A stretch of DNA of 53,949 nucleotides from an uncultured Faecalimonas sp. (GTDB lineage Bacteria; Bacillota; Clostridia; Lachnospirales; Lachnospiraceae). The translations under genes and the position numbers were made by a program. The notes beneath the pieces are model-generated. The model worked only from the letters and a program-made list of their open reading frames with translations. It was not told where the DNA came from and did no database searches. This document shows, piece after piece, positions 6,060 to 53,306 of the stretch (position 1 is the stretch's first letter; every line of letters begins with the position of its first letter). The stretch spans positions 1-53,949 of the forward strand of contig CAYLRF010000004.1 of assembly GCA_964385995.1 (NCBI GenBank). The letters are read 5' to 3'.

Positions 6060-8624
6060 TTATGTCTGATCCCGCGCGAGATAATTCTCGAACTGCTCCA
6101 TGTTCATCAGTATGTTGCGCGGCTTCGTGCCTTCCTCCTCTCCCACGACTCCGGCGTCGCAGAGCTGATCCATGATCCTCGCGGCTCTGTTAAATCCTAT
6201 CTTAAAGATCCTTTGCAGCATCCCTATGGAGGCTTTGTCCTTCTCTATGATAAATTTCCCCGCGTCCGCGAAATACGGATCGACGTCGTTTCTTTCGTCA
6301 TTAGTATCCGGCGTATCCGCCGCGCCGGCCGACGTGATATGCCTCTCCACTTCATCATCATAAGCTTCGCCGTCGGTATGCTCCTTTAGAAAGTCCACTA
6401 CCGACTCCACTTCCTTATCGGACACATAGGAACCCTGCACCCTGACGGGTTTCGGATAGCCGGTGGGATAAAAGAGCATGTCGCCCTTACCTAAGAGTTT
6501 CTCGGCTCCGTTCATGTCTATGATGGTTCTGGAATCGACACCGCTTACCACGGAAAACGCGATACGGGAAGGCATGTTCGCCTTAATAAGACCTGTGATG
6601 ACATTCACCGAAGGCCTCTGCGTGGCTATCACAAGATGTATGCCGGCCGCCCTCGCCAGCTGTGCGAGCCTGCAGATGACATCCTCCACATCTTTCGGCG
6701 CGACCATCATAAGATCCGCGAGCTCATCCACTATTATGACGATCTGGGGCAATTTCTTCGGTTTTTCTTCATCGTCGGCGCCGGAAAGCGACTCCACCGC
6801 CTCGTTGTATCCCTTTATGTCCCGCACATTCATCTCGGCGAATTTCTGATAACGATCCGTCATCTCTGCGACCGCCCAATTTAAGGCGCCCGTGGCCTTT
6901 TTGGGATCCGTAACCACGGGTATGAGAAGGTGCGGTATGCCGTTATAGACTTTTAATTCCACTACTTTCGGATCGATCATTATAAAGCGAACCTCATCCG
7001 GAGTCGCCTTATAAAGGATACTTACGATGATGGTGTTTATGCAGACCGATTTGCCCGAACCTGTAGCGCCCGCTATAAGTAAATGCGGCATGGTGGCGAT
7101 ATCGGCCACAACCGGCTTTCCCGTTATGTCGCGGCCCACGGCGAAGGCTATCTTTGAGGACTGTCTCGTAAATTCCGGGGACTCCAGGATGTCGCGCAGC
7201 ATGACGGCCGAATTCTCGTCGTTTGGCACCTCTATGCCCACCGCCGCTTTGCCGGGTATCGGAGCCTCTATACGGATATCGGGCACCGCGAGATTTAACT
7301 TTATGTCATTGGCAAGCGCCACTATCCGGCTGACCTTTACGCCCTGCTCCGGCAAAAGCTCGTATCTGGTCACGGCGGGGCCGCGGCTGACGTCTGTCAC
7401 AGTGACATTGACATTAAAATTCATCAAAGTCTGCTGCAGCTTCATGGCTGTCCGGCGCAAATGCTCGCTCGAGTCGCCGCCGCCTTTGCTTCCCTTTCGA
7501 AGAAGTGACATGGGAGGATAATGATATTTCGCCTCATCTTTTCCCGTCGGTCTCGCGGCGGTTATGACGAGCTGCCCTGACTCCTCCTGGCTGGTCCGCA
7601 TTTCTTTCGCGGCGCCTTCCCTGCCTTTTGTTCCCGAGGCGGAGCGTTTATCAGCCATCTTAATCCCCGGTATCTCACAGGTCCCGTACCCGGCCTTATC
7701 GGACGATTCATACAACGCGTTTTTATGAAGACCGGCGCTTACGCCTGATACGTCCGATGTCCCGGAGGCGGCCGCGTCTCGAGCGTCATCCTCATCAAAG
7801 GGAAGCGGCTCTTTCGTGTCGGAGGCGTCTTTTTCCTTTTCCTTTGTTATCTCGGTATTGCGGGAGACGCCTGTGTAAGTCTTATCTTTTCTTCGTGTCT
7901 TTATCTTTCTTTCGCCGAGGGCGGCATTTTCATCCGCGTCCGGGTCCGTTTTGCCGCGGCCCGTATCCCCCCTCGTTTTACGCGCCGCGCCGGATGCGGG
8001 TTCTCCCCCATCTTCCTCATCGTCTCCACCGCGTCTTTTGGAATTATCCCTCACGGAGTCGCGGATCTTTCTTCCGCCGTTTTTTATACCGCCTATGAGA
8101 GACTTCTCGGTAATTATCACAAAGCATATGACGCAAACGGCAAGCACCACGATCCACGTGCCTACCTTCCCCACTGAGGGGCGAAGCATATTCACGAACA
8201 TACCGCCCAAAATCCCGCCGCCGTCACGGTGAAGTTTCGACATGCGAAAATAATCGCCAAGAGAAGTCCCCTTCTCATAATCTCCCGTAACTATCTGGAA
8301 AATCGTGCAGATCATAAGGCAGAAGACAAAGCAGGCCGCCGCTTTCACGTAAGCTATGTAATTGCCCTTATTTGAAACGAAAAAGGCGACCCCGATAAAT
8401 AAAAATATCGGCACGATGTAGGCGATGAAGCCGAACATGCCGAATAAAAAGTCTGAGCAGGCGTCCCCTATAAAGCCGCAGAGACCGAAGTTCGCGAACA
8501 TAAGAAAAAGACATACCGCGAGTGAAACAAGGATCGCTATCTCTCTTCCGATACGCGGCGACTTTTTACCCGTCTTATTTCGGGCGGCGCCCGCTGAAGT
8601 CTTTTTCTTTCGTCCGGACGCCAT
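6060..8624 (-). CDS. ftsK: DNA translocase FtsK/SpoIIIE
   Basis: N-terminal TM helices, a long charged linker, a Walker A motif (GATGSGKS) and a C-terminal gamma domain. Start chosen at ATG 8624 (AAGGGAG 6 nt upstream). The track start at 8663 lies inside a tandem repeat. Confidence 0.9.
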   Translation of the reverse strand: MASGRKKKTSAGAARNKTGKKSPRIGREIAILVSLAVCLFLMFANFGLCGFIGDACSDFLFGMFGFIAYIVPIFLFIGVAFFVSNKGNYIAYVKAAACFVFCLMICTIFQIVTGDYEKGTSLGDYFRMSKLHRDGGGILGGMFVNMLRPSVGKVGTWIVVLAVCVICFVIITEKSLIGGIKNGGRKIRDSVRDNSKRRGGDDEEDGGEPASGAARKTRGDTGRGKTDPDADENAALGERKIKTRRKDKTYTGVSRNTEITKEKEKDASDTKEPLPFDEDDARDAAASGTSDVSGVSAGLHKNALYESSDKAGYGTCEIPGIKMADKRSASGTKGREGAAKEMRTSQEESGQLVITAARPTGKDEAKYHYPPMSLLRKGSKGGGDSSEHLRRTAMKLQQTLMNFNVNVTVTDVSRGPAVTRYELLPEQGVKVSRIVALANDIKLNLAVPDIRIEAPIPGKAAVGIEVPNDENSAVMLRDILESPEFTRQSSKIAFAVGRDITGKPVVADIATMPHLLIAGATGSGKSVCINTIIVSILYKATPDEVRFIMIDPKVVELKVYNGIPHLLIPVVTDPKKATGALNWAVAEMTDRYQKFAEMNVRDIKGYNEAVESLSGADDEEKPKKLPQIVIIVDELADLMMVAPKDVEDVICRLAQLARAAGIHLVIATQRPSVNVITGLIKANMPSRIAFSVVSGVDSRTIIDMNGAEKLLGKGDMLFYPTGYPKPVRVQGSYVSDKEVESVVDFLKEHTDGEAYDDEVERHITSAGAADTPDTNDERNDVDPYFADAGKFIIEKDKASIGMLQRIFKIGFNRAARIMDQLCDAGVVGEEEGTKPRNILMNMEQFENYLARDQT

Positions 8625-8660
8625 CAGCGTCTCCCTTCTTTTTATGACGGCACGCGCCTT

Positions 8661-8769
8661 CATCCTTGCCCGGCCGCGAAAAATCAGCCCACGCTTTCAT
8701 CCTGCCCGGCCGCGAAAAATCAGCCCACGCTTTCATCCTGCCCGGCCGCGAACCATCAGCACGCGCTTT
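8661..8769 (-). repeat. Tandem repeat, 3 copies of a 36-37 bp unit
   Basis: Plus strand: CATCCTTGCCCGGCCGCGAAAAATCAGCCCACGCTTT (8661-8697), a near-identical 36-mer (8698-8733), and a diverged third copy (8734-8769). Confidence 0.9.
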
Positions 8770-8903
8770 CTTTTGTGGCACTCTGACGCTGAATCGGCGC
8801 GGAGCCGTTTATCACCGTCAACCCGACCCGGTGCACCCCTAAGGAGAACGCCGCCCGGGAGGAGTACCGCAACGGCTCGCCCGACTCGCATCCCCGCCGG
8901 GGT

Positions 8904-16348: not shown

Positions 16349-18883
16349 TTACTCCCCGAAGACCTCTCTCGCGTACTTTACCGACTGCGTGGCGTCTTTC
16401 GAGTAAAAATCCGCGCCTATCATCGCTGCGTACTCGCGCGTTAATACCGCTCCGCCCACCATCACCTTCACGTCTTCGCACTCGGCCTTAAGCTGTCTTA
16501 TCGTCTCTTTCATGCTCTCCACTGTCGTCGTCATGAGAGCGCTTAGGCCGACCAGCTTTATGCCTCCCGCTTTAGTCTCTCTTACGATGTCCTCCGGCGG
16601 CACGTCCTTTCCCATGTCGATGACGTCATAACCGTAGTTTTCCAGAAGTACCTTTACTATGTTTTTTCCTATGTCGTGTATGTCGCCTTTTACCGTGGCG
16701 AGAAGTATCTTTTCACCCTTAGCGCGGCTTACGCCGTCGGAAGTCATTTTCTCTTTTAACGCGCTAAACGCCGCCTTGGCCGCCTCCGCGCTCATAAGAA
16801 GCTGCGGGAGAAATATCCTGCCCGCCTCAAAGCCGTCTCCCACCTCGTCGAGCGCTGGGACGACGCAGGAATTTATGACATCCATGGGCCTTAACTTATC
16901 CGTAAGGAGAGACGCGATGGCGCCCGCTTCTTCCTTAAGGCCGTTTATTATCGCGGATTTTAATGCGGCAGATGCGCCCTCTTCTTCGCCTTCACTGTTT
17001 TCAGCCTCCGAAGGCGGCTTTTCTTTTGCCGAGGCGGGTTTTCCTTTTTTGTCCGATACGCGCACCGGCCCGTCTTTATCTCCCCCGCGCGGCCGGGGAC
17101 CTCCTTTGCCGCTCATTTCTCTCGTCGGCGCGGCTGATTTCTTATCCCCCGCGAAGCCTATGTAAGCCTTAAAATCCTTATCAAGCCCGCTTAGCGCCCT
17201 GAATGAACGGTATACTCCCATCATCTCGTCTGAAAGCGGATTTATGATAGCGGCCGAAAGACGCCTCTCAAGCGCCATGAGATAAAAGCTCGCGTTTAAA
17301 AGGCTCCGCGCGGGCAGTCCGAACGAGACATTTGAAACACCGAGCAGGGTGTTTACCCCGTAGCGCTCACGCACCATGCTCATGGCGTCCAGTGTGATTT
17401 TCGCACTGTCGGGATCCGCGCTCACCGCCATCGTGAGCGTATCAATTACTATGTCTTTCTTGGGGATACCGTAACGCGCGGCCTCCTCTATGATCTTTCC
17501 CGCCAGACGGCATCTGCCCTCCGCGGTATCCGGGATACCCTTTTCATCCAGTGTAAGCCCGACGACGACGCCTCCGTATTTCGCGACGGGAGGAAAGACA
17601 TTATCCATCGACTTTTGCGAGGCGTTCACGGAATTTACCATGGGCTTTCCGTTATAGGCGCGCATGGCGTCCTTTAGAGCCTCCGGATTTGATGTATCTA
17701 TCTGAAGCGGGAGACGTATCACGCTTTGTAAGCGGGTCACGGTTTCTTTAAGCACCGCGCGTTCATCTATCCCCGGAAGTCCGACGTTTACGTCCAGTAT
17801 GTGAGAGGCCGCCTCCTGCTCGACTATGCCCTCTTTTAAAACAGTATCATAGTCCCCGCCCAGAAGCGCCTGCTTTAAGCGGCTTTTTCCCGTAGGATTT
17901 ATCCTCTCTCCTATGATGACGGGATCGTCGCCGATAAATACGGCGCCCGCGTACGATGAGACCACGGTCTCGTCCGCGGGTTTAATCGGTTTTACTCTTA
18001 TGTGACGGCAGCTTTTGACCGCCGCGGCTATGTGCTCGGGCGTGGTGCCGCAGCATCCTCCCGCCAGATGGGCGCCGGCGTTTACGGTAGCCTTAAGATC
18101 CTTCGCGAAAAGCTCGGGCGATACGTCATAGACGGTCTCATCCCCCTGACGGACCGGAAGACCGGCGTTTGGCTTTACGATGACGGGAACGGAGGAATGT
18201 CTTACTATCTCCGGCAATATCCGAAGCACCTGCGCGGGGCCCATGCCGCAGTTTACGCCGAGAGCGTCGACCCTTAATCCTTCGAGCATAGCGACGGCCG
18301 ACGGGATATCTCCTCCCGTAAGCAGCCTTCCTTTCTCATCGAAAGTCACCGTGGCGAAAACGGGAAGATCGCAGGCTTCCTTCGCAGCGAGGACGGCCGC
18401 CTTCGCCTCGTAAAGATCTGTCATCGTCTCGATGTAAATAATATCCGCGCCTGCCTCTTTCCCGTACGTCACGGCCTCGAAAAAAGCGTCGTAGGCGTCC
18501 TCAAATGAAAGATCCCCCAGAGGCTTAAGAAGCTTTCCCGTAGGACCTATGTCAAGCGCGACAAGATATGACCCCTCTTTACGCGCCGCGTCTACGGCCG
18601 CGTCTTTTGCGAGCCTTACGCCCTGCCTTACCGTGTCACGAAGAAGATCTGCGCCGCCCGGCATTTTCACGCGGTTCGCGCCGAAAGTATTCGTAAGAAT
18701 TATATCGCTTCCCGCCGAAAGGTACGCCGCGTGGACTCTTTTTACGGCGTCCGGCCTTTTTATGTTCCAAAGCTCGGGAGCCTCTCCGCTTATAAGGCCT
18801 TCCCTTTGCAGCACGGTTCCCATAGCCCCGTCCAGAAATAATAATTCTTTACCGAGACGTTCCCGAAGCATCTGTCCCTTCAT
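16349..18883 (-). CDS. metH: Methionine synthase (Hcy-methyltransferase + pterin-binding + B12-binding domains, no activation domain)
   Basis: 844 aa. N-terminal S-methyltransferase domain (GGCCGTTPEHI), pterin-binding region, and the B12 motif GDIHDIGKNIV. The start could instead be the ATG four codons downstream. Confidence 0.9.
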   Translation of the reverse strand: MKGQMLRERLGKELLFLDGAMGTVLQREGLISGEAPELWNIKRPDAVKRVHAAYLSAGSDIILTNTFGANRVKMPGGADLLRDTVRQGVRLAKDAAVDAARKEGSYLVALDIGPTGKLLKPLGDLSFEDAYDAFFEAVTYGKEAGADIIYIETMTDLYEAKAAVLAAKEACDLPVFATVTFDEKGRLLTGGDIPSAVAMLEGLRVDALGVNCGMGPAQVLRILPEIVRHSSVPVIVKPNAGLPVRQGDETVYDVSPELFAKDLKATVNAGAHLAGGCCGTTPEHIAAAVKSCRHIRVKPIKPADETVVSSYAGAVFIGDDPVIIGERINPTGKSRLKQALLGGDYDTVLKEGIVEQEAASHILDVNVGLPGIDERAVLKETVTRLQSVIRLPLQIDTSNPEALKDAMRAYNGKPMVNSVNASQKSMDNVFPPVAKYGGVVVGLTLDEKGIPDTAEGRCRLAGKIIEEAARYGIPKKDIVIDTLTMAVSADPDSAKITLDAMSMVRERYGVNTLLGVSNVSFGLPARSLLNASFYLMALERRLSAAIINPLSDEMMGVYRSFRALSGLDKDFKAYIGFAGDKKSAAPTREMSGKGGPRPRGGDKDGPVRVSDKKGKPASAKEKPPSEAENSEGEEEGASAALKSAIINGLKEEAGAIASLLTDKLRPMDVINSCVVPALDEVGDGFEAGRIFLPQLLMSAEAAKAAFSALKEKMTSDGVSRAKGEKILLATVKGDIHDIGKNIVKVLLENYGYDVIDMGKDVPPEDIVRETKAGGIKLVGLSALMTTTVESMKETIRQLKAECEDVKVMVGGAVLTREYAAMIGADFYSKDATQSVKYAREVFGE

Positions 18884-18904
18884 AAATATGTCTTAATGCC
18901 TTTC

Positions 18905-18940
18905 ATCTTCCCTTTCCCGACGTATTTTTGCGCGTCGGAA
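18905..18940 (-). repeat. Partial family-1 module (hairpin B + purine tract)
   Basis: Coding-strand read: CCGACG-CGCAAAAATA-CGTCGG followed by GAAAGGGAAG. It lies in the spacer upstream of metH. Confidence 0.4.
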
Positions 18941-18962
18941 AGGCGGTTTATGAGTTTTCCCT

Positions 18963-22521: not shown

Positions 22522-22586
22522 GTTTTCCTCTTTCCCGACGCGCCCCGTCGCATTGTAAAGGCTGTTTTAAAGTTTACTTTTAAGCT
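22522..22586 (-). repeat. Family-1 module, single copy, abutting the DUF4430 start
   Basis: Coding-strand read: TTAAAAG-TAAA-CTTTAAA (imperfect hairpin A), linker CAGCCTTTACAAT, CGACG-GGGCG-CGTCG (hairpin B), then GGGAAAGAGGAAAAC-ATG. Confidence 0.6.
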
Positions 22587-22692
22587 TACCCACGCGCCCC
22601 GCCATGTTGCGTAAATCATTTGATAAAAAGCGGTAAATATCAGGCGGACTCCTTTTTTCTATCCCGTATCCCGGCGCAATCCACGCGTAAGT

Positions 22693-24143: not shown

Positions 24144-25541
24144 TTATGCCTCGGAGGCTTTTATCATTATGGCGCACTCGATCCGCTTCTTAAAAAGCTC
24201 GCAGCCCGCCTCATATACGCCTCTTACGTCACCCGTAGAGTGATAGGAATTCGCGGCGCATCCTCCGGAGCAATAAAATCTTGCCCAGCAATCGGCGCAT
24301 TCTTTCCTCGCGTACGCGTTGCAGCCCTTAAAAAGAGAGCGCACCGATTCGTTCGTGACGCCGGTATATATGTCTCCCAGTTTAAAATCCGGCTCTCCCG
24401 CGAACTGATGACAGGGATACAGTTCTCCCGTAGGCGTGACCGCCATATACTCAGTGCCCGATCCGCAGCCCGAGATTCGCTTATATACGCATGGACCTCC
24501 CTTTAAATCGATCATGTAGTGATAGAAGGTAAATCCCCTGCCTTCCTTTTTCCGCTTAATCATCTCCCGGGCAAGTATCTCATACTGCTCTTTAACAGTC
24601 TTTATGTCATCGGCTGTCAGCGCCGCGGGGTCATTTTGCGGCGCGACGACAGGCTCCATGCTAAGCCTCGTAAACCCCAGATCCGCCATGTGAAGCACGT
24701 CCTTTACAAAATCCGGATTCGCGTGCGTAAACGTGCCCCGTATGTAATAATCCTTGTCGCCTCTTTTTTTGACCAGATCCTGAAATTTCGGGACAATGAC
24801 ATCGTAGCTTCCGCGTCCAGCGTAGTCTTTTCTGTTCAGATCGTGGATCTCTTTTCGGCCGTCAAGACTTAAGACGACGTTTGACATCTCTTTATTTACG
24901 AAATCCGTCACCTCATCATCTATCAGCATTCCGTTTGTCGTAAGCGTAAAACGAAAATTCTTCCCGCACTCTTTTTCAAGACTCCTCGCGTAACTCACGA
25001 TCCTTTTTACGACGTCAAAGTTCATGAGAGGCTCTCCGCCGAAGAAATCCACCTCGAGATTTCTCCTCCCCTTGCTTGAGTCGATGAGAAAATCTATGGC
25101 CCGTTTTCCGACCTCAAAGCTCATAAGCTCTCTTTTTCCGTGATACCGGCCCTGACTTGCGAAACAGTAAGGACAGTTAAGGTTGCAAGTGTGAGCCACA
25201 TGAAGACAAAGCGCCTTAACCGTATCGCCCGATCTTTCCTTAAAAGTCCCCGCCATGGGTGCGAACGTGTCGGGTGAGAAAAGTTTGCCCGCTTTTTGCA
25301 GCTCTCTGACATCTTTAACGCACTTTCGGATCTCTTCCCGAAAATGTTCGCTGTCATCGTGATATTTGTCACAAAGAGGTCTTACGATTTTTTCGGTATC
25401 TTCTGCGCCGTGACATTTATCAAAACCAGATTCGCCGTAAAGTCTGATGACGTCATAGGCAAGATCGTCCGTGACATGCACCGAGCCCGAGCATGTGTCA
25501 AGGACTATGTTGTAGCCGATAAGTTTATATTGATGAACCAT
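24144..25541 (-). CDS. scfB: SCIFF radical-SAM/SPASM maturase
   Basis: 465 aa. Radical-SAM motif CNLNCPYC, C-terminal SPASM Cys clusters (CGSGTEY...YPCHQF...CADCWARFYCSGGCAANS). Sits immediately downstream of a SCIFF-type peptide gene. Confidence 0.9.
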   Translation of the reverse strand: MVHQYKLIGYNIVLDTCSGSVHVTDDLAYDVIRLYGESGFDKCHGAEDTEKIVRPLCDKYHDDSEHFREEIRKCVKDVRELQKAGKLFSPDTFAPMAGTFKERSGDTVKALCLHVAHTCNLNCPYCFASQGRYHGKRELMSFEVGKRAIDFLIDSSKGRRNLEVDFFGGEPLMNFDVVKRIVSYARSLEKECGKNFRFTLTTNGMLIDDEVTDFVNKEMSNVVLSLDGRKEIHDLNRKDYAGRGSYDVIVPKFQDLVKKRGDKDYYIRGTFTHANPDFVKDVLHMADLGFTRLSMEPVVAPQNDPAALTADDIKTVKEQYEILAREMIKRKKEGRGFTFYHYMIDLKGGPCVYKRISGCGSGTEYMAVTPTGELYPCHQFAGEPDFKLGDIYTGVTNESVRSLFKGCNAYARKECADCWARFYCSGGCAANSYHSTGDVRGVYEAGCELFKKRIECAIMIKASEA

Positions 25542-33175: not shown

Positions 33176-33226
33176 ACTCTCCTCTTTTCCGACACGCCAT
33201 AGTATATTGTTGCTTCCCGCGTCATG
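33176..33226 (-). repeat. Family-1 variant: hairpin B with expanded loop + SD, abutting xseB
   Basis: Coding-strand read: ATGACGCG-(22 nt)-CGTGTC-GGAAAAGAGGAGAGT-ATG. The stem is 6 bp including one G.U pair. Confidence 0.5.
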
Positions 33227-33311
33227 ATGTTATCCCGGCAAAACCTTTGACCCTGAAAATGCCCTCATGCAGGTGAGATAACCGGCTCGCTTGACTTCCC
33301 CCGGCTTAACC

Positions 33312-38492: not shown

Positions 38493-38662
38493 AGTGATAT
38501 TACGAATGGTTCCGCGCTACGCGCTCCCGCAATCCTGCCCCTGATATTCGGATTCCGTGGGACCCCTTCCTCACTTCATCCTCCTATTTGTGCGGATAGA
38601 GAACACTTTTCCCACCGGCACGCGGGAATGCCGTGGGGCAAGGTTTCTGCCTTGATATCACT
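38493..38662. repeat. Family-2 intergenic element, copy A (MITE-like, about 170 bp)
   Basis: Ends AGTGATAT (38493-38500) and ATATCACT (38655-38662) are inverse complements. Roughly 65 nt resemble 53121-53188, including the identical 14-mer GCTCCCGCAATCCT. Confidence 0.6.
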
Positions 38663-43185: not shown

Positions 43186-43357
43186 CTTTACCTCTTTCCC
43201 GACGTGTCTTTCACGTCATACAGGTAGTTCGAAAGATTTCAAACTTACCTCTTTCCCGACGTGTTCCTCACGTCATAAAGATAGTTCGAAAGATTTCGAA
43301 CTTACCTCTTTCCCGTCGTGTTCCTCACGTCATAAAGGCAGCTTAAAAAGTTTACTT
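43186..43357 (-). repeat. Family-1 module, 3 tandem copies (57-bp period) filling the hisD-hisB spacer
   Basis: Plus-strand units start at about 43187, 43244 and 43301 (CTTACCTCTTTCCCGACGTG...). Each carries two hairpins and a GGGAAAGAGG tract on the coding strand. Confidence 0.9.
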
Positions 43358-44653
43358 TCCTTCCTCCTCAAATCTTACCCTTACGGAATTCGCGTGCGCC
43401 TCTAAGTGCTCCGTATTCGCGAAAAGCATGATGTCGTCCGCCATTTGCCTAAGAGCCCCTTTCGAACATGAGATGACGCTTGATTTTTTCACGAACGAGT
43501 CCACGTTAAGCGCCGAGAAGAAACGAGCGGTACCTCCCGTCGGAAGCACATGACTCGGCCCCGCCATATAATCTCCCAAAGGCTCGCTGCTGTACTCTCC
43601 GATGAAGATGGCGCCTGCGTTTCTTATCCTCGTCATCACCTCAAAAGGATTTTTCGTCATGATTTCCAGATGTTCCGGCGCTATACCGTTCGCGAGATCT
43701 ATCGCGTCGTCCATGGAATCCGTGACGAAGATGCCCCCGCATCCGTCTATGGATTTTCTTATGATATCGCGCCTGGGGAGCGTATTTATGAGCTTTTCGA
43801 CTTCGTCACTGACCTTACGCGCCAGTGACTCGCTGACCGTTATGAGAATCGCGCTTGCCATCTCGTCATGTTCCGCCTGTGAGAGAAGATCCGCCGCCGC
43901 GAAGCGCGGATTCGCCGTCTCGTCGGCCAGCACCAACACCTCGCTGGGTCCCGCCACGGAGTCAATGTCAACCGCGCCGTAGACGGCCTTTTTCGCGAGA
44001 GCGACGTATATGTTCCCCGGGCCCGCTATCTTATCAACCGCGGGTATGCTTTCGGTGCCGTAAGCCATAGCGGCTATGGCCTGCGCCCCGCCCGCTTTGT
44101 AGATGACATCGACGCCGGATTCGCGCGCGGCGATAAGAGTATGGATATTTACCGAGCCGTCCGATAAAGGCGGCGTCGTCATAATTATCTCATCCACACC
44201 CGCAACCTTAGCCGGCAGGACATTCATAAGCACCGAGGAAGGGTATGATGCCTTGCCGCCCGGCACGTAGATGCCGACTCTCTTTAACGGCGTCACCTTT
44301 TGCCCGAGAATCATCCCGTCAGGCGTTGTCGAAAACCAGCTTTGCCTCTTCTGCTTCTCGTGATAGGAGATGATGTTTTCCTTCGCCTTTCTTATCACGG
44401 ATATCACCTTCGGGTCGGCTGCCTCGTAGGCTTTATCGATCTCATCCGCGGTCACGGCGATATTCGCTTCGGATATGTCCGCTCCGTCGAATTTCTTCGT
44501 AAGCGAAAAAAGGGCCTTATCACCCCCGCGTCTTACCTCCTCTATGACGGAGCGCACCGCGGGCTCATATTTTTCATAGCTGCCCGCTCTTACTTTAAGC
44601 AACTCGCGTATCTCGCTCTTTCCCGAATCCCGATCTGATTTTGTTATCCGCAT
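43352..44653 (-). CDS. hisD: Histidinol dehydrogenase
   Basis: SQAEHDE, GPSHVLPT and similar motifs. ATG 44653 (GGGGAAG upstream) is preferred over the GTG at 44686. Confidence 0.93.
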   Translation of the reverse strand: MRITKSDRDSGKSEIRELLKVRAGSYEKYEPAVRSVIEEVRRGGDKALFSLTKKFDGADISEANIAVTADEIDKAYEAADPKVISVIRKAKENIISYHEKQKRQSWFSTTPDGMILGQKVTPLKRVGIYVPGGKASYPSSVLMNVLPAKVAGVDEIIMTTPPLSDGSVNIHTLIAARESGVDVIYKAGGAQAIAAMAYGTESIPAVDKIAGPGNIYVALAKKAVYGAVDIDSVAGPSEVLVLADETANPRFAAADLLSQAEHDEMASAILITVSESLARKVSDEVEKLINTLPRRDIIRKSIDGCGGIFVTDSMDDAIDLANGIAPEHLEIMTKNPFEVMTRIRNAGAIFIGEYSSEPLGDYMAGPSHVLPTGGTARFFSALNVDSFVKKSSVISCSKGALRQMADDIMLFANTEHLEAHANSVRVRFEEEGK

Positions 44654-44780: not shown

Positions 44781-44876
44781 ATGACTTTCCTCTTTCATGG
44801 CTCGCTTTAGCGCGTTATGACCCGCTTTAGCGCGGCATCCGTCATCAATGGGGTTACGAAAGTTTACTTTCAAATC
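44781..44876 (-). repeat. Degenerate family-1 module after hisG
   Basis: Coding-strand read: GAAAG-TAAA-CTTTC (hairpin A) 8 nt after the hisG stop. Then ATGAC, a duplicated CGCGCTAAAGCG hairpin motif, and GAAAGAGGAAAG. Confidence 0.45.
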
Positions 44877-44882
44877 TTTAGC

Positions 44883-45553: not shown

Positions 45554-46849
45554 TTAGTTATCTTTTTTCTCTTTTTTCTCATCGACTGCCTGCGCGTCCG
45601 GCATTATCCTTTTTTTCATTGTTCTGGTTCTTCCGGTAAGAAGATTTACCATCTCGATCTCGCTGCCCGCCTTCAGGTACATCATGCTCGCGCATTGATT
45701 TTTTTTGGCGTGTGCGATGTAAAAGTCAAGCTCGGACGCGGGATTTTTTTTCATAAGGAGCGTAGGTTTCCTGTTTTTTCTGAAATCGCGGGCGACGAGA
45801 GCCGCTTCCTCGTGTCTTTCCCCGTCATAGAGAACGTATGTGCCTCTTAAACAGAGCGGTACGTTGATCTTCTGCCGCGATATGGCTTTCATAAGCTCGT
45901 CCGCCACGATGACAAAACCCACGGCCGGCAGATCGCGTCCGAATTTCGCGATAAGACTGTCATATCTTCCGCCCTTTACGACGGCGTCCCCTATACCGTA
46001 AGTATATCCGTGAAATATAACGCCGGTGTAATATCCGTAATCTCCGCTGATTCCGAGATCAAATGTCACGTATCTGCCGACGCCGTATCCCCTTAAAGCC
46101 TCGTACATCTCCTCGAGACGGCTCACCGCCTTAAGACAGCGGGGGCTTAAGGCTATCTTTTTCGCCTCTTTTAAGACTTCGACGCCGCCCGTAAGCTCGG
46201 GGAGTATCTGAAACGCGGTCTTGGCCGTCACCTTCACGCCGCACTCGTCCAAAAGCTCCTCCACTCCGAATGAATTGCGGTTTTTAATGAGACGGCGCAG
46301 ATATTCCTCATGTTCATCGTCAAGTCCAATCCCGCTTATAAGACCCTCGAAGAAGTCGACGTCTCCCACGTATATCTGAAAATCGTCAAGACCGGCTCCC
46401 CTAAGCGCGTCCGCGGCCATCGCGATCATCTCCGCGTCCGCCTCCGCGCTTCCCTCTCCGATAAGCTCGGCGCCTATATGCGTGGTCTCATGCAATTTCC
46501 CCTGATATCCAGACGGATTGGTAAAAGCGTTGCCGCGATAGCAGAGACGAAGCGGCATGTCGCTTTCGTCAAACACCGTGGCCGCGGCCCTCGCCACCGA
46601 CGGAGTGATATCCGGCCGTAAAACCAGAGTGTTCCCCTCTTTATCAAACAGCTTATACAGATCCTTTGACGGAGTCGAGCCTTTGTCCTTTCCGAAAACG
46701 TCGAAATACTCAAGCGACGGCGTCTGAATGTCGCGGTATCCGTAAAGACGCATCGCGCCGAGCAGCTTTTCTTCCGTGGCAAGCTTCGCGGCGCATTCCG
46801 TATTATATATGTCTCTCACGCCGTCCGGCGTGTGCTGATGACGACTCAT
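45554..46849 (-). CDS. hisZ: ATP phosphoribosyltransferase regulatory subunit (HisS paralogue)
   Basis: TPDGVRDIY...YGYRDIQTPSLEYFDVF...LRPDITPSVAR, without the HisS catalytic arginine motif. Start at ATG 46849. The track's upstream extension is a translated repeat. Confidence 0.85.
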   Translation of the reverse strand: MSRHQHTPDGVRDIYNTECAAKLATEEKLLGAMRLYGYRDIQTPSLEYFDVFGKDKGSTPSKDLYKLFDKEGNTLVLRPDITPSVARAAATVFDESDMPLRLCYRGNAFTNPSGYQGKLHETTHIGAELIGEGSAEADAEMIAMAADALRGAGLDDFQIYVGDVDFFEGLISGIGLDDEHEEYLRRLIKNRNSFGVEELLDECGVKVTAKTAFQILPELTGGVEVLKEAKKIALSPRCLKAVSRLEEMYEALRGYGVGRYVTFDLGISGDYGYYTGVIFHGYTYGIGDAVVKGGRYDSLIAKFGRDLPAVGFVIVADELMKAISRQKINVPLCLRGTYVLYDGERHEEAALVARDFRKNRKPTLLMKKNPASELDFYIAHAKKNQCASMMYLKAGSEIEMVNLLTGRTRTMKKRIMPDAQAVDEKKEKKDN

Positions 46850-46959
46850 ACTGTCAGCTATCCTCTTTTCCGACTTTTTCAAGTCATAAAGGCAGTTTTG
46901 GGAGCGGAGCTTCCAAACTTTCCTCTTTTCCGACTTGTTCTTCAAGTCATAAAGGTTCT
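46850..46959 (-). repeat. Family-1 module, 2 tandem copies (about 60-bp period) filling the recU-hisZ spacer
   Basis: Plus strand: CCTCTTTTCCGACTTTTTCAAGTCATAAAGG (46862-46892) and CCTCTTTTCCGACTTGTTCTTCAAGTCATAAAGG (46922-46955). Hairpin A (46896-46917) lies between them. Confidence 0.85.
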
Positions 46960-47493
46960 TCAGGATCTGGAATCAATATCTTTTTGAATAAAATCGAGGT
47001 AGGGCACGATGAACCCGCCCTCGAAACTCATAAAGAAATCACCGTCCAGCTCATCGCGTCTGAAACTGCTTCTTCCGCCATTTTCCCGACGCTCCCAGAA
47101 CCGTTTAATCTCGCAAAACTTCATATAGTATAATTCATCACGCGCCGTAAAGTAAAGCAGGAAAAAGGAAATGCCTCCCTGCCTCTCAAAGTCCTCCATG
47201 AACTTTACCTGATGAGGATGAACGTTCTGAAGCGGAAATGTATCCTCGTGACACTCCTTCGCGTCAAAGCAGACGGGAAGGCCCTGCACCGCTCCGATGT
47301 AATCGACGGTGCTTTTCTGACCGAAATACGCGAGAGTTATGTGCCTTTCACGCTTATCGATCTTCACGGGAGTAATCGGCGTTGGGATTTTCTGAATGAG
47401 CGCGAGGCCCGCCTCCCTGTAATGTTCGTTTGTCCTGTTTAAAAGCTCCTCGAAGGCGGAGCCTCTTAAGCCTCTTGAGTTCCATGTGGCCAT
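46960..47493 (-). CDS. recU: Holliday junction resolvase RecU
   Basis: 177 aa. GLRGSAFEELLN...STVDYIGAVQGLPVCFDAKEC is RecU-like. Confidence 0.88.
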   Translation of the reverse strand: MATWNSRGLRGSAFEELLNRTNEHYREAGLALIQKIPTPITPVKIDKRERHITLAYFGQKSTVDYIGAVQGLPVCFDAKECHEDTFPLQNVHPHQVKFMEDFERQGGISFFLLYFTARDELYYMKFCEIKRFWERRENGGRSSFRRDELDGDFFMSFEGGFIVPYLDFIQKDIDSRS

Positions 47494-49172: not shown

Positions 49173-49280
49173 AATCTCCTCTTTTCTGACGCGCTCCAGC
49201 GCGTCATCAAGGTAGTTTTGGAAGTTTACTTCCAAACTTTCCTCTTTCTTGACGCGCCCAGGCGCGTCATCAAGGTAATC
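49173..49280 (-). repeat. Family-1 module, 2 tandem copies (about 63-bp period)
   Basis: Coding-strand read: GACGCGC-CTGG-GCGCGTC and GACGCGC-TGGA-GCGCGTC, each followed by AGAAAGAGGA-type tracts. A perfect hairpin TTTGGAAG-TAAA-CTTCCAAA (49217-49236) lies between them. Confidence 0.85.
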
Positions 49281-52400: not shown

Positions 52401-52468
52401 TTTCTCCTCTTTTCTTTCCTGACGCGCCCTTCGCGTCATAAAAGCAGATTTGAAAGAAAACTCTCAAA
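52401..52468 (-). repeat. Family-1 module, single copy
   Basis: Coding-strand read: TTTGAGAG-TTTT-CTTTCAAA, linker TCTGCTTTTAT, GACGCG-AAGGG-CGCGTC, then AGGAAAGAAAAGAGGAGAAA-ATG. Confidence 0.8.
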
Positions 52469-52555
52469 TCCGCGCCTCCTTAATAAACTCCCCTTATTGA
52501 AATTTTAAATCTTTATTTCCCGCCGCAAATACGCCCGATACTCTCAGAACTTTAT

Positions 52556-53106: not shown

Positions 53107-53121
53107 GACTTAAATCTCTTA

Positions 53122-53306
53122 CTGATATTACGGTTGTTTGGCGCAACAAGCTCCCGCAATCCTACCCTGATATCGTTTTATCCACGGACATGCGCGTATT
53201 TGCGTTGAAACTCGGAGCAATGAAGCGGCAGGCGATGCGTCTTATTCACGGACACGCGCGTATTTGCGTGCCTTCGGGGGATACAGGTTTGTCAGCGTAT
53301 TTATCA
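53122..53306. repeat. Family-2 intergenic element, copy B (about 185 bp) filling the rsmD-coaD spacer
   Basis: The left end CTGATATTACGG...GCTCCCGCAATCCTACCCTGATATCG parallels 38493-38560. Contains an internal ~30-bp direct repeat CACGGACAYGCGCGTATTTGCGT (about 53173 and 53247). The right end CGTATTTATCA overlaps the rsmD stop. Confidence 0.55.

Follow-up and report, generated by a model that had tools for sequence, protein, structure and literature searches.

How did two hairpin-bearing modules come to stand between recU and hisZ, and what would their presence mean for the gene that follows? The question is raised by a spacer (46850-46959, minus strand) in a 53,949-nt stretch of DNA from an uncultured Faecalimonas sp. 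of the Lachnospiraceae (contig CAYLRF010000004.1), which we call the window; coordinates are positions within it, and the modules, or units, are described on the coding (minus) strand. A preliminary description, made from the letters alone, had placed two modules of a repeat family in this spacer. Both are real, the quoted sequence and coordinates being found on the minus strand, and they lie head-to-tail. We put a probability of roughly 0.7 on the reading that such modules are non-autonomous, apparently mobile repeats, each with two hairpins and a ribosome-binding site (RBS), that are carried by some Lachnospiraceae. What the preliminary description did not contain is that each unit ends in a Shine-Dalgarno (SD) sequence, and that the family is an insertional repeat found between the native SD of a gene and its start codon. 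A literature search found no description of this repeat family, which is apparently undescribed so far.

The unit is ordered hairpin A, X, hairpin B, X', over about 57-68 nt. Hairpin A has the consensus AGTTTGGAAG-TAAA-CTTCCAAA(A/T)CT, and X is CCTTKATGAC, a segment that resembles an anti-SD. Hairpin B is closed by the pairs GAC/GTC, while its inner stem and loop vary, and X' is GTCRGRAAAGAGG, the AAGAGG of which is an SD sequence. Between recU and hisZ, these parts are arranged as follows.

46960-46962, minus strand: recU stop codon TGA, followed by AGAA and then by unit a, 4 nt past the stop.
46922..46955, minus strand: unit a, CCTTTATGAC-TTG-AAGAA-CAA-GTCGGAAAAGAGG, comprising X, hairpin B and X', with AAAG next; aligned with the other units.
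46932-46948, minus strand: hairpin B of unit a, GACTTG-AAGAA-CAAGTC.
46894..46919, minus strand: hairpin A of unit b, AGTTTGGAAG-CTCCG-CTCCCAAAACT (arms TTTGGAAG/CTCCCAAA), with one A·C mismatch.
46862..46892, minus strand: unit b, CCTTTATGAC-TT-GAAA-AA-GTCGGAAAAGAGG, comprising X, hairpin B and X'.
46872-46885, minus strand: hairpin B of unit b, GACTT-GAAA-AAGTC, 5 bp.
46847..46861, minus strand: the 12-nt spacer ATAGCTGACAGT, then the true hisZ start codon ATG (46847-46849), with which Met1 of a homologue aligns.

No hairpin A belonging to unit a is recognisable in the spacer. Unit b together with its hairpin A is matched by a covariance model at 46855-46924 (40.7 bits, E = 4e-7), and the GAGG at 46862-46865, within the final AAGAGG of unit b, is the sole SD-like sequence ahead of the hisZ ATG. 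The stems given earlier for this site were correct in sequence, except that hairpin B of the second unit is GACTT/AAGTC, of 5 bp, and not GACTTG/CAAGTC; the hairpin A quoted is present, with the small correction of its A·C mismatch. The preliminary description was also right to call a 32-codon extension of hisZ through the repeat false, as residue 33 of the 463-aa hisZ open reading frame (ORF) aligns with Met1 of a 416-aa HisZ homologue. A public gene call (P0123) carries the same false N-terminal extension.

Strains of runs SRR14209493-96 have the same two units, differing by one extra loop A and one change of GTCGG to GTCAG. Beyond these strains, no nearer relative of the window organism was found in databases, the closest other HisZ proteins being 62-63% identical and from Lachnospiraceae (best match 63%). 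The number of units in orthologous recU-hisZ spacers, proposed earlier as a check, was thus readable only in one such distant relative (HisZ 62-63% identical), where the order pseudouridine synthase-recU-hisZ-hisG-hisD-hisB-hisFIE is identical and the recU-hisZ spacer, of 12 nt, has 0 units. The spacers of this syntenic his operon measure 12, 16, 1 and 16 nt, with units in none. Because they are short and unit-free, the long spacers in the window are lineage-specific expansions.

Evidence of insertion comes from a second genus. A degenerate-pattern scan of metagenome contigs retrieved 50 loci, about 37 of which are true and about 13 of which are chance matches inside coding sequence, without hairpin A or ATG. 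The true matches hold a nearly invariant unit, aAGTTTGGAAGTAAACTTCCAAATCTA-CCTTGATGAC-GCA-GCAAG-TGC-GTCAGGAAAGAGG-AAAAC-ATG. Protein identity makes their host Fusicatenibacter saccharivorans, with which we equate the NCBI label 'Lacrimispora saccharolytica' on these proteins. Near-identical units of 62-68 nt occur there at at least 12 loci with unrelated flanks and different genes downstream, among them modB-like, moaC-like, thiE, hslO, CBS-domain, scpB, asparaginase, GH3 glycosidase, ABC ATPase and dsdA-like genes (functions read from the translations, without a Pfam test). Across at least 8 loci in the window and at least 12 loci of this other genus, covariance-model E-values reach 1e-21. 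The sole orthologue common to the sequences of both hosts, AlaRS, is 65.6% identical, compared to about 85% for the units. Scans elsewhere were negative: the exact consensus (CCTTTATGACN{6,24}GTCGGRAAAGAGG) gave one chance-like match, in a coding region, among species-representative genomes and none in metagenome contigs, and no copies were found in viral contigs or by blastn against plasmids. Rfam at gathering thresholds returned nothing for the units, and Rfam 15 had no match at E <= 5 over 43.1-53.3 kb of the window or at E <= 10 on the Fusicatenibacter unit.

Three orthologous junctions are filled in F. saccharivorans or in its sister species Candidatus F. merdavium, whose proteins are 93-96% identical, and empty in the other. 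At hslO, Candidatus F. merdavium (contig L060) is empty and reads ...GAAGGAGCAAGAGC-ATGTGTAAAGAT, with Hsp33 96% identical, whereas F. saccharivorans (L045, L068) is filled and reads ...GAAGGAGCAGA-unit-AAAAC-ATGTGTAAAGAT; an outgroup Fusicatenibacter (L063) is empty. A DUF2812 gene that shares a 20-kb syntenic block with hslO shows the opposite: F. saccharivorans lacks a unit there (GGGAGGTGGGTTT-ATG), and Candidatus F. merdavium has one, of a variant form (ACGGAGGTGA-variant unit-ATG). At scpA-scpB, the two genes overlap by TAATG in Candidatus F. merdavium (L065, …GAGGATGAGTTAGAATAATGG) and by 23 nt in an outgroup (L067), while in F. saccharivorans (L013) a unit stands between GAGGATGAGATAGA and ATAATGG, and ScpA stops at the UGA in the loop of hairpin A, its C-terminus changing from …DELE* to …DEIEVRK*. 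Since the outgroups are empty at two of the junctions, the filled state is derived, that is, an insertion, and the reciprocal pattern of filled and empty sites means that the family was active in both sister lineages. A core SD tetramer (GGAG, GAGG or AGGA) lies no more than 14 nt upstream of the unit at 12 of 16 distinct loci, against a background of 11.5% (p = 6e-9), which places the unit between the native SD and the ATG. Repeats at the junctions are limited to an ambiguous 1-3 nt (GAA/A).

Two further observations concern these contigs. The empty hslO junction of L060 (9932-10000) has a perfect 10-bp hairpin (GTAACCGTTC-AGTTGACG-GAACGGTTAC) upstream of the native SD, perhaps a further small insert, perhaps a terminator. 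Two Logan contigs of the window organism, L001 and L009, end inside the array at 49.2 kb, and in contig L056, at 1.1x coverage, hslO is connected through a unit with the left flank of the CBS-gene locus; this suggests that the repeats break assemblies or create chimeras, or that the loci recombined.

The window itself holds about 10 clear units plus degenerate ones, all on the coding strand; covariance-model matches to window units have E-values from 4e-7 to 2e-18. The motif GTCGGRAAAGAGG occurs 11 times at no more than one mismatch, always on the minus strand, where 0.32 occurrences are expected and 0 of 100 shuffles reach 11. Apart from recU-hisZ, the loci are these.

43191..43366, minus strand: three-unit array between hisD and hisB, period 57; hairpin B GACGTG/CACGTC.
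43352-43354, minus strand: hisD stop codon TAA, in the loop of the leading hairpin A of that array.
49178..49275, minus strand: two-unit array upstream of a 191-aa ORF, period 63; hairpin B GACGCGC/GCGCGTC; 87.7 bits.
52406..52471, minus strand: single unit upstream of a 196-aa ORF; hairpin B GACGCG/CGCGTC; 63.4 bits.
22527..22587, minus strand: single unit upstream of a DUF4430 gene; 68.8 bits.
18907..18943, minus strand: unit without hairpin A, upstream of metH; 21.4 bits, E = 0.03.
44789..44877, minus strand: degenerate unit or units in the 229-nt hisG-hisD spacer, with a TAAA-loop hairpin A, TTGATGAC and an internal duplication; 23.3 bits, E = 0.011.
33181..33229, minus strand: possible degenerate unit upstream of xseB, CATGACGCG...CGTGTCGGAAAAGAGG then ATG, without CCTTT and with a long loop; not detected by the covariance model.
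28.1 kb, minus strand: degenerate form, from an intergenic reading.

The hairpin B stems quoted earlier for 43.2, 49.2 and 52.4 kb are all present. The arrays precede genes that are unrelated to one another, namely hisZ, hisB, metH, two ORFs of unknown function and the DUF4430 gene. Between the end of an array and the next start codon there are always 2-12 nt, so that the AAGAGG of the last X' is the SD of the downstream gene. At 52.4 kb, a native-like SD, AAGGAGG, is found directly 5' of hairpin A, and the second unit of the 49.2-kb array is about 85% identical to the Fusicatenibacter consensus. An upstream stop codon lies within 4-26 nt of most units, which are accordingly operon-internal, and no sigma-70-like promoter was found inside any window unit. 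Over the core, units are 82-90% identical within a locus and 45-82% between loci, bearing out the earlier remark that copies of one locus resemble each other more and point to local duplication.

Some side observations belong to these loci. Upstream genes can take their stop codon from the loop of hairpin A (UAAA/UGAA), as hisD does in the window and scpA in F. saccharivorans, and as X also contains a UGA, two of the three frames are closed inside every consensus unit. The array periods of 57, 57, 60 and 63 nt (43.2, 46.9 and 49.2 kb) are all multiples of 3, which may be chance, at about 1 in 27 for three arrays. After the SD of the metH unit, an 8-codon ORF (18883-18906, minus strand; ATGAAAGGCATTAAGACATATTTATGA) ends in a TGA that overlaps the metH ATG (ATGA), an arrangement suggestive of a coupled leader ORF. 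To the right of the window, a degenerate unit (…AAAACAGCC…ACGTCGGGAATGAGG-CAGGC-ATG) occurs upstream of an Orn/DAP decarboxylase gene at 641-666 of contig L009; with this unit in the 9 kb past the window, the family continues outside it at similar density.

Are the hairpins themselves maintained? In a structural alignment made with covariance model R1 (32 matches, 30 distinct), 94.3% of paired cells are standard pairs, compared to 32-47% when the partners are slid. The larger alignment called for in the preliminary description gave the covariation it had anticipated, with 8 pairs changed on both sides versus 3.5 in shuffles, none of 500 of which reach 8. Three inner positions of hairpin B occur in two Watson-Crick types each (G-C/U-A, C-G/U-A and A-U/G-C), and in hairpin A two positions alternate between G-C and A-U, one of them through a G-C to A-U double change in situ in a single young Fusicatenibacter copy (L057). 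Both hairpins are kept by paired substitutions, and both appear to be under constraint. The paired changes in the inner stem of hairpin B, first noted in the window, are thus true, although the window alone is thin, with about two events, and they become convincing once the Fusicatenibacter copies are added: its 10 units have 2 double-change pairs versus 1.0 expected, a count reached by 86 of 500 shuffles, with a covariation score exceeded in 2 of 500. The further claim, of selection on a fold rather than on primary sequence, does not hold as to the sequence, since hairpin A, CCTTKATGAC and GTCRGRAAAGAGG are strongly conserved even across genera. Paired changes would also be compatible with subfamilies whose hairpins serve mobility, or with hairpin-templated mutation, and they do not separate these from selection on a fold.

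The comparisons show the anatomy of the unit, its distribution across genera, and its insertion a few nucleotides upstream of a start codon and downstream of the original SD of the gene. From there, the following sequence of events can be proposed. The insertion would move the native SD to about 65 nt from the ATG. At such a distance, the SD at the 3' end of the unit would have to drive initiation, as at scpB, hslO, hisB and hisZ, and we infer that it takes over translation initiation, which would let the gene survive the insertion. Where the upstream ORF formerly overlapped the junction, the stops in the hairpin A loop (UAA/UGA) and in X (UGA) would terminate it. Head-to-tail arrays could arise by either of two routes. 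One, proposed for the window, is local tandem duplication, and local duplication or conversion is suggested because the units of one window array share a hairpin B variant. The other is re-insertion behind the SD of an existing unit, which fits an old diverged unit followed by a consensus unit in Fusicatenibacter L034. The hairpins may serve mobility, as DNA, or have a role in the mRNA, where X could partly mask the SD, or a hairpin with an SD-like site could protect the downstream cistron in the manner of a STAB-SD.

Several points weigh against this reading. The fetched loci and the window yielded neither a transposase nor an autonomous copy, so that mobility is deduced from patterns of presence and absence only. 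Terminal inverted repeats are absent, and any duplication of the target site amounts to an ambiguous 1-3 nt (GAA) at most. All window genes, that is, the ORFs of at least 150 aa that fill it, are on the minus strand, which is the G-rich one, and the orientations of transcription and of replication are inseparable there. The helix of X with X', which would mask the SD, is 85% paired but lacks convincing covariation, and the window organism and Fusicatenibacter have it in different registers. Sense-strand G·U cells outnumber A·C cells by 24 to 12, yet when independent changes in the Fusicatenibacter rows of alignment A6 are counted by hand, the figures are about 6 versus 5. At recU-hisZ itself, insertion is suggested by comparison with one distant relative.

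It is conceivable, though we think it unlikely, that X (as CCUUKAU, like the 3' end of 16S rRNA) guides insertion beside SDs by nucleic-acid pairing, in which case the unit would be a mobile element of a new, target-guided kind. In parallel or instead, and within the same unlikely proposal, the units may have been adopted by the host as insulated RBS cassettes, where the hairpin with its SD, STAB-SD-like protection and masking by X would set the translation and stability of cistrons in operons.

A different account, which we also regard as improbable, is that the units are a conserved cis-regulatory RNA in which X keeps the SD masked and the long hairpin has to be opened by a signal, be it temperature (as in a ROSE- or fourU-like thermometer), an upstream ribosome, or a protein or small RNA on hairpin A or B; the unit would then have spread by usefulness and not by mobility. 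Every copy is indeed sense-oriented and directly at an RBS, and minimum-free-energy folds of the sense RNA are predicted to pair the CCUU(U) of X with the GAGG or AAAGG around the SD, most strikingly at 18.9 kb, where X and X' of the metH unit form a near-perfect 11-bp stem (CCTTTCCGACG/CGTCGGGAAAGG) that contains the SD. Such an RNA would also fit the covariation in both hairpins, the somewhat higher number of G·U than A·C cells and a sequence kept between hosts whose AlaRS is 66% identical. However, the downstream genes share no pathway, Rfam has no match, and near-identical copies occur at unrelated loci while the corresponding junctions in sister species are empty, reciprocally. The SDs internal to arrays have no start codon after them, and the X:X' helix on which the masking depends, besides not covarying, is broken in the variant of Candidatus F. 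merdavium and by a G at column 40 in 20 of 30 rows.

Quite unlikely, in our judgement, is that the units belong with REP/REPIN or IS200/IS605-type (PATE-like) elements, moved by a tyrosine (HUH) transposase acting on hairpins in single-stranded DNA and inserted strand-specifically into the lagging-strand template, 3' of a short target, with the SD incidental. Units always lie 3' of an SD-like motif, at varying distance, a pattern that selection could also yield. Two hairpins per unit, uniform orientation on the G-rich (leading) strand and insertion on the 3' side of a short purine motif, without a clear duplication of the target, would be expected of such elements, and the present units share with REP and BIME elements a small size, an intergenic position often within operons and stem variation that preserves pairing. 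However, the ends of IS200/IS605 elements and the members of REP pairs share one hairpin type, whereas hairpins A and B have no common sequence, and the similar subterminal hairpins of a PATE are absent. In a half-site scan of the fetched loci and the window (hairpin A without B nearby, or the reverse), neither solo hairpin ends nor a split copy with a transposase turned up, the matches being palindromic echoes of units already known. The Pfam calls for L001, L009 and L060-L069 include no transposase, the sequence available for the window organism amounting to about 63 kb. Hairpin B often reads GACG...CGTC, recalling the CGTC-tagged REPs (PMC3733652). In tagged REPs, a 20-40-bp palindrome carries an unpaired GTAG or CGTC tag and mostly forms inverted dimers, and the elements lie mainly downstream of ORFs (PMC3733652). 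In contrast, the present units have neither GTAG nor an unpaired CGTC, the latter lying inside the stem of hairpin B where it is present and reading AGTC in the recU-hisZ copies, and they form head-to-tail arrays at start codons, with two different hairpins plus an SD. A classical miniature inverted-repeat transposable element is no closer a match, the unit having the ends AGTTTGG... and ...AAAGAGGAA in place of terminal inverted repeats.

Very improbable, finally, and refuted by the dispersed copies that the pattern scan and covariance model found (at least 8 loci in the window and at least 12 in another genus, E down to 1e-21, with 11 motif occurrences against 0.32 expected), is the idea that the modules merely duplicate the ribosome-binding region of hisZ locally and are palindromic by chance, with no dispersed family or function, even if likeness is greater within than between arrays and the periods of 57, 60 and 63 nt are regular. 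Other candidates were tried and rejected. A coding unit, suggested by an ATG in X, a TTG in hairpin A and periods that are multiples of 3, has no conserved frame. An intrinsic terminator (hairpin A plus CTTTAT), flagged by a simple scan, has an AT-rich stem and an interrupted U-tract, and was also rejected because essential downstream genes would be cut off. Translational coupling by a ribosome melting X fails as a general explanation, the stop lying 4-19 nt from X at some loci and 95-150 nt at others, and CsrA-like sites with a GGA loop are contradicted by loops that are not conserved.

How, then, does a mobile repeat of this kind compare with known systems? BOX elements of Streptococcus pneumoniae are modular intergenic repeats of a Firmicute, with the order A-B(n)-C, a tandem module and a stable predicted RNA fold; they are often found in 5' gene regions, but have no fixed place between SD and ATG and do not supply an SD. 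By description, the present units are similarly modular, repeated in tandem, 5' of genes and in a Firmicute host, and differ in bearing an SD within the SD-ATG spacer. The array-internal SDs may be likened to the STAB-SD of Bacillus thuringiensis cryIIIA, an untranslated SD-like sequence without a start codon that could bind 30S subunits and protect the downstream mRNA, except that the STAB-SD is a single, non-repeated leader element.

The closest analogues are the mycobacterial MIRUs and the REP2 of Neisseria. Supply et al. are said to have described MIRUs in 1997 as elements of 40-100 bp, often in tandem, in the intercistronic spacers of operons and co-oriented with the flanking genes. They are short, repetitive and apparently mobile and insert at start codons; a coupled internal ORF is thought to keep the downstream gene translated and so to make the insertion harmless (PMC12548453). 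The present units resemble them in size, in tandem arrangement, in intercistronic and co-oriented position and in start-codon insertion. In place of the MIRU internal ORF with its -4 overlap, they have an SD of their own. None of their reading frames is conserved: the 43-kb units have closed frames, which frame is open depends on the host, ATG-ACN-TGA mini-ORFs are found at 43 and 46.9 kb, and a -4 overlap occurs once at 49.2 kb and once in L034. Host phylum and sequence differ as well, the likeness being one of description, and the present units have two covarying hairpins. REP2 of Neisseria and the IR sequences of Borrelia plasmids are dispersed elements without terminal inverted repeats that stand immediately before ORFs and have two internal stem-loops and an RBS; a promoter and an ATG are part of them too, and they form the 5' untranslated regions of regulated genes (PMC3184786). 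The two stem-loops, the lack of terminal inverted repeats and the 3' RBS before an ORF recur here, whereas the present units have no promoter-like site, are mostly intercistronic and occur in tandem, and the ATG appears to be that of the gene. There is no evidence of common ancestry with either element.

The window has other features, set apart from the units. An Rfam Clostridiales-1 RNA (RF01699, 63.4 bits) lies at 38495-38660 on the minus strand, and the spacer at 53107-53303 resembles the 3' part of this RNA (GGGTAGGATTGCGGGAGC...CGTAATATCA) and contains two direct repeats of about 31 nt (CGCAAATACGCGCRTGTCCGTGRATAA). At 8655-8770, a 36-nt tandem repeat (3.2 copies, 92% match, plus-strand consensus CGCTTTCATCCTGCCCGGCCGCGAAAAATCAGCCCA) spans the 5' end of an 867-aa ORF (6060-8663) and its upstream spacer. 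On the minus strand at about 25.64-25.78 kb, a 46-codon cysteine-rich ORF (MERIKTLDTRDLCESAKEGGCGECQTSCQSACKTSCGVANQSCEKKN) stands just upstream of a 465-aa ORF (24144-25541), a pair that may resemble a SCIFF-type six-cysteine peptide and its radical-SAM maturase. A look-up of the protein encoded at 1654-2685 returned no record.

The units have practical consequences. They cause false N-terminal extensions (hisZ; P0123), broken assemblies and maybe chimeric contigs (L056), while reciprocal presence and absence between sister species could be turned into strain-typing markers, as in MIRU-VNTR. A compact hairpin-SD cassette found before unrelated genes could serve as a natural insulated RBS part. 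F. saccharivorans is a very common human gut bacterium, and dozens to hundreds of its genes may use element-borne ribosome-binding sites. For the family, this would be a clear Firmicute case of a selfish repeat that enters the few nucleotides from SD to start codon and is rendered harmless by the SD it carries, a case that resembles MIRU and REP2 but with a different solution.

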